From contig CADECG010000005.1 in NCBI GenBank assembly GCA_902825795.1, positions 1 to 50,783 of the forward strand: a DNA stretch of 50,783 nucleotides, given 5' to 3'. This stretch comes from an uncultured Bacteroidota bacterium (lineage in GTDB: Bacteria; Bacteroidota; Bacteroidia; Flavobacteriales_F; PHOS-HE28). Position numbers and translations under genes: made by a program. Shown piece by piece: positions 37,030 through 42,570 of this stretch. The first letter of the stretch is position 1. Each line of letters starts with the position of its first letter. The notes beneath the pieces are model-generated. The model ran no database searches. It was not told the DNA's origin and was given only the letters and a program-made list of their open reading frames with translations.

Positions 37030-38274
37030 TCAGGTCAACCCCCTCGGCCAAGCCAAGTACCATTTCTCCACGGGCGTGCTCAGCGCGGCGATCCCTAAGT
37101 TGTCGCTCGCCTCGGCTATGTCGCGCACGGTGCCGTCTTTGTACAGCAGTTCAATGCGGTCCGTGGCCGTGTCGTAGGCATTGTTGACGATACGCCCGGT
37201 GAGTACGAAGTGTTCGGCTTGATCGGCCGGAACGCCCAGTTGTTTGGCGACTGCCGTGCGTTTGGGCGAGACTTCATCAGCAGGCCATGGGTTGCTTTGC
37301 AAGGCTATCTTGAACGTGCGCCGCTGAACGATATCGCTGCACAACTTGCCGAGCGACTTGTCACGATGTTCGGCCCACACTTTCACCGCTCCCATGATGT
37401 CGTGATCGTCCAAGCGCAGGAAGTCCTTCAGCACCTCGGGATCGCGGAAGTCGTCGCGACCGTGTGGTTTGGATAAGAAGCGCTGCAGAGCGGGTGAAGC
37501 GAAGAGCGGCTCGCCACCTGCGACCAATGTCTTTGCCCGCTTCAGCGCTTCCACCAGCATCACCTCGGCGCTCACCACGGTCTTGTGCAGGTATACCTGC
37601 CAGTACATCAGGCGCCGCGCTACAATGAACTTCTCGATGCTGTAGATCGCTTTCTCCTCTACCACCAGTCGGCTCTTGCGCGTGTCGAGGCTGGCGTCGT
37701 GCACCACCTCCAGCATTTTGATGATGCGGTCGCCACCGATCACCCCTTCGCTTACGCCGGTGTAGAAGCTGTCGCGGTTCAAGTAATCCATGCGGTCAAC
37801 ATCCAATTGGCTGCTCACCAACTGGTGCAGGAAGTGCTTGGGGTGCTGGTCGCGGAAAATGGCCAGACCGGTCGTTAGCGCGCCATCGAGTTCGTTATTC
37901 AACGCATCCATCACCAAGGCGCTGACCTCCTCGTGGTCGATGCCATCCACCAAGCTGCTCTCCAGCGCGTGACTGAACGGCCCGTGACCGACATCGTGCA
38001 GCAGGATGGCGATGGCAGCGCCTTGGGCTTCATCATCGGTGACCGCGTGTCCCTTGCTGCGCAGCGTTTCAATGGCCTGGCCCATCAAGTGCATGGCACC
38101 CAACGCATGGTGGAAGCGCGTGTGTAAGGCGCCTGGGTAGACCAAATGCGAAAGGCCCAACTGCTTGATGTACCGCAACCGCTGGAACCAAGGATGATCG
38201 ATGAGCCGCAACACCGTGGCATCGGGCACGGTGATGAACCCATAGATGGGGTCGTTGAGGATCTTGCGGCGCAT
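37030..38274 (-). CDS. HD-domain phosphohydrolase (dNTP triphosphohydrolase / SAMHD1-like)
   Basis: NDPIYGFI, QRLRYIKQLG, HTRFHHALG, LLHDVGHGPFSH, LDVDRMDYLNRD, LMYWQVYLHK. Confidence 0.92.
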   Translation of the reverse strand: MRRKILNDPIYGFITVPDATVLRLIDHPWFQRLRYIKQLGLSHLVYPGALHTRFHHALGAMHLMGQAIETLRSKGHAVTDDEAQGAAIAILLHDVGHGPFSHALESSLVDGIDHEEVSALVMDALNNELDGALTTGLAIFRDQHPKHFLHQLVSSQLDVDRMDYLNRDSFYTGVSEGVIGGDRIIKMLEVVHDASLDTRKSRLVVEEKAIYSIEKFIVARRLMYWQVYLHKTVVSAEVMLVEALKRAKTLVAGGEPLFASPALQRFLSKPHGRDDFRDPEVLKDFLRLDDHDIMGAVKVWAEHRDKSLGKLCSDIVQRRTFKIALQSNPWPADEVSPKRTAVAKQLGVPADQAEHFVLTGRIVNNAYDTATDRIELLYKDGTVRDIAEASDNLGIAALSTPVEKWYLAWPRGLT

Positions 38275-38437: not shown

Positions 38438-39988
38438 ATGAGTGTTTCCATCCTGTGGGCCGACGACGAGATCGATCTCCTGCGCCCACACGTATTGTTC
38501 TTGCAAGAGAAAGGTTACACTGTGGATACCGTGAACAACGGCATCGACGCGGTGGAGAAGGTGAAAGGGAAGGAATACGGGGCTATACTGCTCGATGAGA
38601 ACATGCCCGGCCTCACGGGTCTCGAGACGCTCACGAAGATCAAAGCCTTCGCCCCGCAAACGCCCGTGGTGATGATCACCAAGAGCGAGGAAGAGCACAT
38701 CATGGAGGATGCGATCGGCAGCAAGATCAGCGATTACCTGATCAAGCCCGTGAACCCGAACCAGATCCTGCTGGCGCTCAAGAAGCACATCGATGGACGG
38801 CGGTTGGTGAGCGAGAAAACGAACACCGACTACCAGCGGCAGTTCGGACAGTTGAGCATGCGCATCAGCGACCGGCTTACGGTGCAGGAATGGAAGGAAC
38901 TGTATAGCGACCTGATCCGGTGGGAACTTGAACTGCAAGGCAGCCAGGACCCCGGCATGGCCGAGATCCTGCGCAGCCAATGGAAGGAAGCGAACGACGT
39001 GTTCAGCCGCTACGTGGGCGACCGCTACGTGGATTGGGTGAACGGCAAAGGCCAGGACATCCCGTTGCAGAGCCACCAGCTCTTCCGTACGAAAGTCGCC
39101 CCGCACCTCAAGGACGGCCAACCGCTCTTCATGGTGCTCATCGACAACCTGCGCTTGGATCAATGGCGCATCCTGGAGCCCATCCTCAACCAGTACTACC
39201 GCACCGTGGAGCAGGACGTGTTCTTCAGCATCCTGCCCACAGCAACGCAATACGCACGCAACGCGCTCTTCGCCGGAGTGATGCCGAGCGAGATCGAAAA
39301 GCGTTTCCCGGGAAAGTGGATCGGTGAGGAGGAGGAGGGCAGCAAGAACGCGCACGAAGAAGAGTTCCTCGGCGATCAGTTGAAGCGCTTAGGCAAGAAC
39401 ATCAAGTTCAGTTACCATAAGATCACGAATCTGGCTGCCGGCCGCAAACTGGCCGATACGCTGGACAACTTGATGGGCAATGGCCTTAACGCCATCGTCT
39501 ACAATTTCGTCGATATGCTCAGCCATGCGCGCACCGAGATGGAGGTGATCCGGGAACTGGCCGAGGACGAAGCGGCATACCGTAGCATCACCAAAAGTTG
39601 GTTCGAGCATAGCCCGTTGTTCGACATCCTGAAGGGGATCGCAGAACGCGGTGGGCGCGTGGTGATCTGCACAGACCATGGCACCGTGCGTGTTACCGAA
39701 CCCAGCAAAGTGGTGGGCGATCGCAACACCACCAGCAACCTGCGCTACAAGCACGGAAAGAACCTCACCTACGAGCCGCGCGATGTCCTGGCGATCAAGG
39801 ATCCAGCCAAGGCCTTCCTACCCCGCACCAACGTCAGCGCGGTGTATGTCTTCACAAAGAAGGACTTCTACTTCGTGTATCCCAACAACTACAACCACTT
39901 CGTTAACTACTACCGCAACACTTTCCAGCACGGTGGCATCAGCATGGAGGAGATGATGGTGCCCGTGGCGTATTTGACGCCGAGGTAG
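38438..39988 (+). CDS. porX: Response regulator PorX (receiver plus PglZ alkaline-phosphatase-like domain)
   Basis: ILWADDE, LLDENMPG, ITKSEEE, YLIKPVNP, then LIDNLR, ILPTATQYARN, DMLSH, TDHG, HGG. 516 aa. Confidence 0.93.
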   Translation: MSVSILWADDEIDLLRPHVLFLQEKGYTVDTVNNGIDAVEKVKGKEYGAILLDENMPGLTGLETLTKIKAFAPQTPVVMITKSEEEHIMEDAIGSKISDYLIKPVNPNQILLALKKHIDGRRLVSEKTNTDYQRQFGQLSMRISDRLTVQEWKELYSDLIRWELELQGSQDPGMAEILRSQWKEANDVFSRYVGDRYVDWVNGKGQDIPLQSHQLFRTKVAPHLKDGQPLFMVLIDNLRLDQWRILEPILNQYYRTVEQDVFFSILPTATQYARNALFAGVMPSEIEKRFPGKWIGEEEEGSKNAHEEEFLGDQLKRLGKNIKFSYHKITNLAAGRKLADTLDNLMGNGLNAIVYNFVDMLSHARTEMEVIRELAEDEAAYRSITKSWFEHSPLFDILKGIAERGGRVVICTDHGTVRVTEPSKVVGDRNTTSNLRYKHGKNLTYEPRDVLAIKDPAKAFLPRTNVSAVYVFTKKDFYFVYPNNYNHFVNYYRNTFQHGGISMEEMMVPVAYLTPR

Positions 39989-40288: not shown

Positions 40289-40440
40289 GGTCTTAAATCG
40301 CTCCAAAGTACCCGTTATGTTCCGGGTGTTGATCCGGCTCTTGGGGAACCCAGCGCGGCAGTTCGACAGCGACTTTTTTCCGACGTGTCTATTCCTGATG
40401 AAGCTGGGCAGTGGCACCGCGCAACGATCTTCGCGGCCTA

Positions 40441-40854
40441 ATGCCCTACCGCCTTTCCTCTCCTGATCAAGCGACCGTGATTGCCGGTCAGATCCTCCGC
40501 GACTTCCCCGAAGCCCGCGTCTTCGCCCTGCGCGGCGAACTCGGCGCTGGTAAGACCACATTGATCAAAGGCTTCTGCCAAGCGCTGGGTGTGAAGGACA
40601 GCACCAGCAGCCCCAGCTTCGCCATTGTGAACGAGTACTGGAGCACCGAGCACGGCCCCGTGTACCACTTCGACCTGTACCGTCTGCGCGATGCGCGTGA
40701 ATTGGAGGGCATCGGCTTCACGGAGTACGTGGACAGCGATGCCTACTGCTTCGTGGAATGGCCTGAACTGGCCGCCGACCTGCTGCCGCCCGGTACGGTC
40801 TTCATCGACATGGCGATCAACGGGGAGGAGCGTATCTTGACCCTCCGATCATGA
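40441..40854 (+). CDS. tsaE: tRNA threonylcarbamoyladenosine biosynthesis ATPase TsaE
   Basis: GELGAGKTT, SSPSF, YHFDLYRL, VEWPE. Confidence 0.95.
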   Translation: MPYRLSSPDQATVIAGQILRDFPEARVFALRGELGAGKTTLIKGFCQALGVKDSTSSPSFAIVNEYWSTEHGPVYHFDLYRLRDARELEGIGFTEYVDSDAYCFVEWPELAADLLPPGTVFIDMAINGEERILTLRS

Positions 40855-42071
40855 CGGCCCACAGCGAGATCATCAGGCAGTTGGCGAGTGAAATGGCCAT
40901 GCTCCCACAGGAGCAGGCTGTCGCCACGCAACGCAAGAAGCAGAATCTGTACATCGGCATTCCCAAGGAGGTCGCCTTCCAGGAGCATCGGGTGCCGCTG
41001 ACCCCGGCCGCAGTGGCCGTGCTTACCGGTCGTGGCCACGATGTGGTGGTGGAGCGGGGTGCTGGCAAGGCCGTGCAGTTCCAGGACAGCGATTACACCG
41101 AGGCCGGTGCCATGCTGGTGGACAGCCCGCTGGAAGTGTTCAAGGCCGATATCATCCTGAAGGTTGCTCCGGCCAGCAGCGCCGAGATCGAGATGTTGCG
41201 GCCCAAGCAGTTGCTTATTTCCGCATTGCAGCTCACTGTGCAACCGCAGGATGCGCTGAAGTTGATGATGAAGAAGCGCGTGCACGCCGTGGCGTGGGAC
41301 TTCATCAAGGACCGGCAGGGCATTTACACGATCATACGCGCCATGGGGGAGATCGCGGGCAACACGTCGATCCTCATTGCCAGCGAGTACATGGGCACCG
41401 ACAAGGGCGGCCCGGGCCTGATGCTCGGCGGCATTAGCGGTGTGGCTCCGGCTGAAGTCGTGATCCTGGGTGCTGGTACAGTTGGCGAGTTCGCCACACG
41501 TGCCGCGTTGGGTCTTGGTGCAAGCGTGAAGGTGTTCGACAAGAGCATTTACCGGTTGCGGCGCATGCAGAGCGATCTGGCCACGCGCATCTACACCAGT
41601 GTGATCCAGCCCGATGAACTGAAACATGCGCTGACAAAAGCCGACGTGGTGATCGGTGCCTTACGCCCGGAGCATGGACGCACACCCATGGTGGTGACCA
41701 GCGATATGGTGCGCGATATGAAGACCGGTGCCGTGATCGTGGATGTGAGCATCGATCGCGGCGGCTGCTTCGAGACCAGTCGCGTTACTACGCACACCGA
41801 TCCGGTGTTCAAGGAATACGGTGTGATCCACTACTGCGTGCCCAACATCGCCAGCCGCGTGCCACGCACCGCCAGCTATGCGCTCAGCAACATCTTCAGC
41901 CCCATGCTCCTGAGCATGGGCGATGGCGGCGGCTTCGAAGAACTGATCAAGAAGGACCTCGGCTTGCGCCACGGCGTGTACTTGTACAATGGCTCCCTTA
42001 CCAGCGAGGTCCTCAGCGAGGCCTTCAAGCTGGAGTACAAGGACCTCAATATGCTGCTGGCGGCATTCTGA
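40851..42071 (+). CDS. ald: Alanine dehydrogenase / PNT-alpha family NAD-binding protein (catalytic residues atypical)
   Basis: IGIPKE, EHRVPLTP, MGEIAG, GAGTVG, DVSIDRGGCFE, YCVPN. KVAP and ALQL replace the canonical KVKEP and FLHL. Confidence 0.8.
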   Translation: MTAHSEIIRQLASEMAMLPQEQAVATQRKKQNLYIGIPKEVAFQEHRVPLTPAAVAVLTGRGHDVVVERGAGKAVQFQDSDYTEAGAMLVDSPLEVFKADIILKVAPASSAEIEMLRPKQLLISALQLTVQPQDALKLMMKKRVHAVAWDFIKDRQGIYTIIRAMGEIAGNTSILIASEYMGTDKGGPGLMLGGISGVAPAEVVILGAGTVGEFATRAALGLGASVKVFDKSIYRLRRMQSDLATRIYTSVIQPDELKHALTKADVVIGALRPEHGRTPMVVTSDMVRDMKTGAVIVDVSIDRGGCFETSRVTTHTDPVFKEYGVIHYCVPNIASRVPRTASYALSNIFSPMLLSMGDGGGFEELIKKDLGLRHGVYLYNGSLTSEVLSEAFKLEYKDLNMLLAAF

Positions 42072-42186: not shown

Positions 42187-42570
42187 ATGAACCTCGCCCG
42201 CCGCATCCGTCTCTTCATCATCGGCCTGCTCATCGGTGGTGTGGCCGCATGGTTCTTCTTTGGTGAGCGCATCACAAGCGGTGCATGGATGCCCGAGGCC
42301 CGCATCAAGCTCCGCTTGAAGGAGACTTTGGTGAAGAGCACGCCGGAGGCCAGCAGTTCCATAGCCAACTGGCCGACCACCATCGATAGTGTGCGCGCAA
42401 GCGTTGCCAATGGCGAAGTGATCCTGAAGGAAACGCGGCGTCACGGAGATAGTCTCACCTACACAGTGGATGTTGCACTGGCCGGTAAACCCGCGCGGTT
42501 GAAGGTGCTGGTGTTGGAGGACTTCCGCATTGACAGCATGGCAACGCTGGTGGGGATAGCGCAGCGATAG
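42187..42570 (+). CDS. Hypothetical N-anchored protein (DUF4258-like)
   Basis: N-terminal TM, WMPEARI, then a small alpha/beta domain. The family call rests on recalled porX-tsaE-ald neighbourhoods. Confidence 0.55.
   Translation: MNLARRIRLFIIGLLIGGVAAWFFFGERITSGAWMPEARIKLRLKETLVKSTPEASSSIANWPTTIDSVRASVANGEVILKETRRHGDSLTYTVDVALAGKPARLKVLVLEDFRIDSMATLVGIAQR

Follow-up and report, generated by a model that had tools for sequence, protein, structure and literature searches.

Does every gene that bears the name alanine dehydrogenase (Ald) encode one? The question is raised by an open reading frame in a 50,783-nucleotide stretch of DNA, referred to here as the window, from an uncultured Bacteroidota bacterium (GenBank assembly GCA_902825795.1, contig CADECG010000005.1). 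The reading frame spans positions 40851..42071 of the plus strand and encodes 406 amino acids with the AlaDH/PNT fold, and public records label the product 'alanine dehydrogenase'. An earlier note, made from the DNA letters, had suggested that this Ald-like protein probably does not interconvert alanine and pyruvate and might rather be a sensor or adaptor for nicotinamide adenine dinucleotide (NAD(H)), or act on another substrate. Our computational follow-up lends support to this proposal: the protein falls short of the family score for alanine dehydrogenases, belongs to a lysine-less clade, has lost at least seven residues that are invariant in Ald, and has a precedent in ADLP, an Ald homolog from Thermus thermophilus. 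On the strength of the sequence comparisons described below, the Ald-like protein is very probably not an alanine dehydrogenase. By analogy with the Thermus protein we favour, with moderate confidence, the reading that it is a non-catalytic, NAD(H)-binding regulator, that is, a pseudo-dehydrogenase.

Fold and family assignment

Membership in the AlaDH/PNT superfamily was supported by both domain models and fold. Pfam assigned AlaDh_PNT_N to residues 36–169 (116.5 bits) and AlaDh_PNT_C to residues 174–385 (214.7 bits), so that PF05222 and PF01262 both exceeded their gathering scores. The AlphaFold2 model showed a confident core (predicted local distance difference test score 85, predicted template modelling score 0.79), and a Foldseek search with this model returned AlaDH structures as top matches (template modelling score, TM, 0.77–0.86), followed by transhydrogenase dI (PntA). 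Sequence identity to the solved Ald structures was about 36%. The curated family models were more discriminating. With the NCBIfam equivalog for alanine dehydrogenase, TIGR00518, the score was 315.3 bits, short of the curated 391.85-bit cut-off, while canonical Bacteroidota Ald proteins reached 460–554 bits. The pntA model TIGR00561 fared worse, with 123.1 bits versus a cut-off of 444.4.

State of the catalytic pocket

His96 and Lys75 are the core catalytic and pyruvate-binding residues of Ald. We mapped these positions by HMMER alignment of the Ald-like protein to M. tuberculosis Ald (2vhw/2voe; E 1.5e-73). The alignment reproduced the residue mapping that had been made by hand in the earlier note, except that it was not gap-free: a single one-residue gap was placed ahead of the KV motif. 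All three proposed substitutions were recovered. Lys75 and Glu76, which serve catalysis and pyruvate binding, are replaced by Ala106 (41166–41168) and Pro107 (together 41166..41171, plus strand), so that the local motif reads K-V-A-P-A versus K-V-K-E-P, and Gln127 (41229..41231, plus strand) occupies the position of the catalytic His96. The features said to be kept were likewise all present. E45-H46-R47 (40983..40991) contains the equivalents of Glu13 and Arg15, the latter being Arg47 at 40989–40991, and is also kept in PntA-like proteins. The Rossmann dinucleotide-binding motif G207-A-G-T-V-G212 (41469..41486) is followed at the end of β-2 by D230 (41538..41540), which corresponds to Ald Asp198 and is an acidic determinant for NAD rather than NADP. 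D302 (41754..41756) corresponds to Asp270, and the motifs F-D230-K and I-D-R-G-G both occur; all of these features lie on the plus strand.

Compared with M. tuberculosis Ald (Rv2780; 2vhw/2vhx), the Ald-like protein thus shows the same two-domain fold with equivalents of Arg15, Glu13, Asp270, Asn300, GxGxxG and Asp198. It differs, however, by Lys75→Ala, Glu76→Pro, His96→Gln and Lys10→Ala, by the further changes Leu130→Ile, Pro132→Ala, Ser134→Gly and Pro302→Ala, by an N-terminal extension, by its position in a separate clade and by its score below the TIGR00518 cut-off. To view the pocket at the level of groups, we picked out the alignment columns with a conservation of 90% or more among canonical Ald proteins and read them in the other groups. 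In the sub-clade of the Ald-like protein, which we call tsaE-linked after its upstream neighbour, the invariant residues K10, K75, E76, H96, L130, P132 and P302 (Ald numbering) are lost, and S134 and Q271 are weakened; the Rossmann motif, D198, D266, D270, N300 and many structural residues are retained. The sub-clade also has signature residues of its own, namely E21, S124, E213, R238, S250, R373 and Y377. A search at the sequence level for substitutes of K75 and H96 yielded no lysine or histidine that is both invariant in and specific to the sub-clade, and therefore none that could stand in for either residue; relocated active-site residues of this kind, which would have spoken against the earlier proposal, were not apparent.

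The N-terminal extension, estimated earlier at about 30 residues, comprises residues 1–33 (40851..40949, plus strand) and is conserved in homologs. It is absent from canonical Ald and from the proteins of the ADLP–CoA transferase (ADLP–CoAT) type discussed below, and was modelled as two low-confidence helices. It carries the motif P19-Q20-E21 (40905..40913, plus strand), of which E21 is conserved to 99% in the tsaE-linked sub-clade and to 84% in the wider clade of proteins with the extension.

Distribution and conservation of the clade

The loss of the catalytic residues is not confined to one sequence. Among 120 close homologs and the query, position 106 is alanine in 114 and glycine in seven, and position 127 is glutamine in 121/121. 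Because the substitutions are fixed in this way, they represent neither a sequencing error nor a chance event.

A word-index search returned at least 8000 homologs, and an exhaustive search of representatives, with E ≤ 0.001 as the limit, found 12,516 relatives. When 136 representatives were placed in a tree, the proteins of about 400 residues with a 25–35-residue N-terminal extension formed one clade (Shimodaira–Hasegawa-like support 98; 53 rows), which stood apart from the canonical K-E-H clade and from a number of short lineages of non-canonical type. Within this extension clade the Lys75 site holds A, E, S, T, N, L, M, I, D, Q, G, Y or C; a lysine occurs in one of the 53 representatives and is missing from the other 52. 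At the His96 site, Q, N and H prevail. Conservation of D270 drops to 66% and that of the second glycine of GxGxxG to 70%, and some of the more diverse members have lost glycines of GxGxxG or the NAD-specificity aspartate. Among the short lineages of the same tree (P0161–P0269), we observed further proteins without Lys75 and/or His96, with, among others, the signatures G-A-H, Q-A-A, M-P-M, Y-G-S and D-G-S. It seems that the catalytic pair was lost repeatedly, or that the Ald family includes many uncharacterised functions.

A closer set of 80 orthologs was obtained by scanning named genomes with a 12-sequence alignment. It spans Flavobacteriales, Sphingobacteriales (Pedobacter, Mucilaginibacter, Sphingobacterium), Chitinophaga, Lentimicrobium and Marinifilum. 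Counting the query, the Lys75 site is A in 65, E in seven, S in six, D in three and K in none, and the His96 site is Q in 66, H in 11, N in two and A in two. The joint loss of both residues, described in the earlier note, must consequently be divided: the loss of lysine is clade-wide, whereas the loss of histidine is secondary, since His96 is kept in many relatives, including 11/80 of the close orthologs. The idea that the residue at this position tracks adjacency to tsaE was discarded, as 9/11 of the His-type orthologs are tsaE-adjacent too. E45, R47, D302, N332, G207 and G209 are invariant in the query and its orthologs (D302 in 81/81), while D230 is found in 79/81 and G212 in 74/81. The near-complete conservation of G207, G209, G212 and D230 argues that nucleotide binding is under selection in the sub-clade.

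A census with a profile of the tsaE-linked sub-clade found the gene as a single copy in 115/121 genomes of the class, covering 82/86 genera. The gene is missing from six genomes. Five of them measure 0.5 Mb (two), 1.3 Mb (one) and 2.0–2.3 Mb (two); the sixth is a fragmented assembly with PorX and TsaE at the edge of a contig. The Ald-like gene is hence a core, single-copy and near-universal family of this Bacteroidota class and not a peculiarity of one genome. Many genomes, for example G021 and G134, hold a canonical Ald (460–554 bits) beside the sub-clade protein (313–355 bits), which implies that the two are not redundant. No canonical Ald was detected in the genome of the window, where the Ald-like reading frame is the only one of its kind in the whole 93.5%-complete genome; the earlier note had asked for this check. 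Two weak PF01262 matches of about 24–25 bits were seen elsewhere in that genome (C43:23075-23377 and C84:3997-4338). The consequences for annotation are considerable: thousands of Bacteroidota database entries name this core gene 'alanine dehydrogenase', and metabolic reconstructions based on the name would wrongly assign a link between alanine, pyruvate and ammonia, as in the genome studied here, which has no canonical Ald.

Relation to ADLP and to transhydrogenase

An Ald-derived, NAD-sensing pseudoenzyme is already known as a kind from one preprint. In ADLP of T. thermophilus (TT_C1082), alanine replaces the catalytic lysine, and this change alone was held to explain why the protein is inactive on alanine, pyruvate and the other 19 amino acids; in its NAD+-bound form, ADLP inhibits the CoA transferase that is encoded next door (bioRxiv 10.1101/2025.10.31.685773). 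The same work reports A, S, G, D or T at the lysine site of the ADLP clade, ADLP–CoAT pairs in Ignavibacteria and Roseiflexus, and a hexameric assembly of ADLP, in line with the stable hexamers that AlaDH-fold proteins form. The Ald-like protein resembles ADLP in its AlaDH fold, in the exchange of the catalytic lysine for alanine and in its retained NAD-binding residues (GAGTVG, Asp230). Moreover, its clade, like ADLP, occurs as a paralog beside canonical Ald in many genomes and is tightly linked to a conserved neighbour. The differences are equally clear. The neighbour is tsaE/porX and there is no adjoining CoA transferase, and the Bacteroidota clade has the extension of about 30 residues with its P-Q-E motif. 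In addition, the ADLP–CoAT proteins keep H96, L130, Q271 and P302, whereas the clade studied here has lost His96, Leu130 and Pro302 and shows a weakened Gln271. Judged by sequence, decay of the pocket has therefore gone further in the tsaE-linked sub-clade than in the ADLP type.

Genuine ADLP–CoAT pairs were also observed in Bacteroidota genomes (L117, L118, L119, L121, L123, L125, L127), which widens the distribution given in the Thermus preprint. These proteins are short, have no extension, carry A/S/G-P-H signatures and adjoin a transferase of the AcetylCoA_hydro family. We could rule out that the Ald-like protein is itself part of an ADLP–CoAT system, given that no CoA transferase was found nearby or in the genome and that the true pairs form a different, short, His-retaining group.

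A maximum-likelihood tree was rooted on PntA-like proteins, with ADLP represented by the CoAT-adjacent proteins from Bacteroidota genomes and not by TT_C1082 itself. Canonical Ald was basal and all Lys-less proteins grouped together, with the extension clade nested among the ADLP–CoAT proteins and the others (SH-aLRT, a Shimodaira–Hasegawa-like approximate likelihood ratio test, 89–94); the extension clade received a support of 99, and the tsaE-linked sub-clade, on a long stem, of 100. Common descent of the extension clade with ADLP, perhaps through a single loss of the lysine, is plausible on this topology, although the approximately unbiased test discussed below leaves room for an independent origin. 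As far as can be read from the sequences, what sets the Bacteroidota lineage apart is the extension with P-Q-E, the extent of pocket loss, the genomic partner and the class-core distribution, and a second, far more widespread Ald-derived lineage is suggested that may read NAD+/NADH with a different partner than that of Thermus ADLP.

Transhydrogenase offers a second point of comparison. PntA dI has the same fold and likewise binds NAD(H) although it has neither the Lys nor the His of Ald, and PntA-like proteins share K-V-x-x-P at the equivalent site. In contrast to PntA, however, the Ald-like protein has no membrane domain, its pntA-model scores are weak, and PntB (PF02233) is missing not only from the window, as noted earlier, but from the whole 93.5%-complete genome. 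The protein further keeps Ald-specific residues that PntA lacks (D270, T281, P286, the H295 equivalent, V298 and T308), and the maximum-likelihood tree places it among Ald-type proteins, far from PntA-like sequences. The suggestion that the retained residues are just those shared with PntA dI was not supported either (Fisher p = 0.056), many Ald-specific residues being kept.

Gene neighbourhood

The start codon of the Ald-like gene shares bases with the stop codon of tsaE (ATGA at 40851–40854). This upstream gene (40411..40854, plus strand) encodes a P-loop ATPase/kinase of the UbK family (TIGR00150, 114.8 bits, cut-off 60.1). It is preceded by porX (38438..39988, plus strand; start set at the Met before SVSILWADDE), which encodes a CheY receiver with a PglZ domain (NF052313, 813.7 bits, cut-off 300). 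Divergent from porX, and part of the conserved neighbourhood, lies a gene for an HD-domain protein (37030..38274, minus strand); with HD and HD_assoc_2 domains and no curated family, it represents an unstudied part of the array. Downstream, a plus-strand reading frame of 127 residues (42187-42570) has no Pfam, NCBIfam or PADLOC match, and with homologs in just 6/80 loci it falls outside the conserved unit.

The operon-like arrangement is widely conserved. In 59/76 loci with enough sequence, tsaE is the next gene upstream and shares the strand, and in several others it sits about 1 kb upstream, with one gene between; porX is found upstream in 52/74 loci. The array of divergent HD gene, porX and tsaE is kept across Flavobacteriales, Sphingobacteriales, Chitinophagales and some Bacteroidales (L035–L114). 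The linkage of porX and ubK1 published for P. gingivalis is thus a phylum-wide feature. In that organism UbK1, encoded downstream of porX, phosphorylates PorX, and TsaE-family proteins work as UbK kinases (PMC13241743).

A role in defence, raised by the PglZ, HD and TIR links, was rejected, as PADLOC returned no match. A scan for promoters and terminators gave counts at shuffle level, with models that do not cover Bacteroidota promoters. Our literature search found no paper on any member of the clade, including the F. johnsoniae genes after porX, nor on a link between Ald and type IX secretion. In F. johnsoniae UW101, the position after porX (Fjoh_2906) and Fjoh_2907 would make Fjoh_2908 the putative ortholog.

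A candidate NAD(H)-binding regulator

Taking fold, pocket and distribution together, we propose that the Ald-like protein would bind NAD+/NADH without turning over amino acids, as Thermus ADLP does, and that its NAD+/NADH-loaded state, or the redox state, would be passed on to a protein partner. The first candidate is the product of the putatively co-transcribed gene, TsaE/UbK, with PorX as the alternative, since the Ald-like gene adjoins tsaE and P. gingivalis UbK1 phosphorylates PorX. We name either partner tentatively, at rather long odds, and the coupling is deduced from conserved synteny. More speculative still is that the Ald-like protein provides a missing redox input of the PorX pathway by controlling the TsaE/UbK ATPase-kinase or PorX itself. 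If this were true, the energy and redox state of the cell would, across most Bacteroidia, feed into gliding and type IX secretion or into the t6A modification of tRNA. The inputs of the type IX secretion regulator are still poorly understood. With the gene tied to tsaE (UbK) and porX throughout most Bacteroidia, and with UbK1 phosphorylating PorX, the locus offers a testable candidate for a signal upstream of PorX. Everything said here about function is drawn from sequence-based reasoning.

Several observations weigh against a regulator of this kind. The tsaE-linked sub-clade shows R47, D302, N332 and H327 without exception, and positions 106 (A in 65/81) and 127 (Q in 66/81) are fairly constrained there; both findings would fit an enzyme with a different substrate as well. 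The known partner of ADLP, a CoA transferase of the AcetylCoA_hydro type, is absent from the genome, where the sole match was a marginal one to PF13336 with 24.8 bits (genuine ADLP–CoAT pairs score above 225 bits); the partner of the Ald-like protein is consequently a guess. The approximately unbiased test did not reject independent branching of the extension clade (p = 0.44). The connection with TsaE and PorX made in the earlier note stands as conserved synteny, but three genomes that keep PorX without the Ald-like gene count against it, and in P. gingivalis the arrangement is porX-ubK1-imm17, again without an Ald-like gene. Conserved gene order may, moreover, mean co-expression rather than physical interaction. 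Finally, His-keeping relatives within the extension clade adjoin unrelated genes, namely those for a SpoU methylase, an SdhB-like subunit and LigA.

Alternative explanations

The main rival, which we regard as unlikely, holds that the protein is a functional NAD-dependent oxidoreductase acting on a substrate other than alanine or pyruvate. The new site would be built by Ala106, Pro107, Gln127, Val/Ile162 and Ala334 together with the P-Q-E motif and Arg238, Arg373 and Tyr377. In its favour, the sub-clade shows no variation at R47, D302, N332 and H327 or anywhere in the NAD site, variation at positions 106 and 127 is restrained, there are clade-specific invariant residues (E21, S124, E213, R238, S250, R373, Y377), and the gene has the core, single-copy status expected of a housekeeping enzyme. 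In the wider extension clade, however, the positions of Lys75 and His96 are free to change, unlike a conserved catalytic centre, and D270 and the second glycine are also eroded (66% and 70%). The best-studied Lys-less relative, Thermus ADLP, is inactive on all 20 amino acids (bioRxiv 10.1101/2025.10.31.685773), and no metabolic gene is consistently adjacent to the Ald-like gene, whose neighbours serve signalling and tRNA modification.

A structural or scaffolding subunit that works independently of the nucleotide, for instance as an oligomeric platform for TsaE/TsaBD or PorX, appears distinctly less probable. The loss of GxGxxG glycines or of the NAD-specificity aspartate in some diverse members of the extension clade, and the stable hexamers of AlaDH-fold proteins such as ADLP, would suit such a platform; within the sub-clade, on the other hand, these very positions are preserved (G207/G209 invariant, G212 in 74/81, D230 in 79/81).

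That routine annotation is right, and the protein a genuine alanine dehydrogenase with a non-canonical active site, is very unlikely. The name in public records, the 36% identity and TM values of 0.77–0.86 to solved Ald structures, and the absence of another Ald from the genome speak for it; they are opposed by the score below the TIGR00518 equivalog cut-off, by the missing K75, E76, H96 and further Ald-invariant residues, by the inactivity of Thermus ADLP, for which the Lys-to-Ala change alone was held responsible (bioRxiv 10.1101/2025.10.31.685773), and by the canonical Ald that accompanies the Ald-like gene in many genomes. Least probable of all is a stand-alone dI-type transhydrogenase subunit that would hand hydride over to an NADP(H) domain on a partner. 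PntA dI speaks for it, being likewise without the Lys and His of Ald, with K-V-x-x-P at the site and as the source of the second-best structural matches; we discarded it because PntB (PF02233) is absent from the genome, TIGR00561 scores 123 bits versus a cut-off of 444, many Ald-specific residues that PntA lacks are kept, and the tree position is with Ald-type proteins, far from PntA-like ones.

Further AlaDH-like proteins

The His-keeping group of the extension clade carries a homologous N-terminal extension with the pattern L-x-[PT]-x-E. In seven loci (L120, L122, L124, L126, L128, L131, L132) its members are encoded directly downstream of, and on the same strand as, an RNA 2′-O-methyltransferase of the SpoU/TrmH type. 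Next to the tsaE case, this is a second RNA-modification gene as upstream neighbour, perhaps by coincidence.

Outside the window, we also encountered an AlaDH-fold protein of 561 residues (P0270) in which an inserted TIR domain (PF13676, 95.9 bits) separates AlaDh_PNT_N from AlaDh_PNT_C. Since TIR domains consume NAD+, this architecture again hints at a reuse of AlaDH-like scaffolds in signalling linked to NAD.

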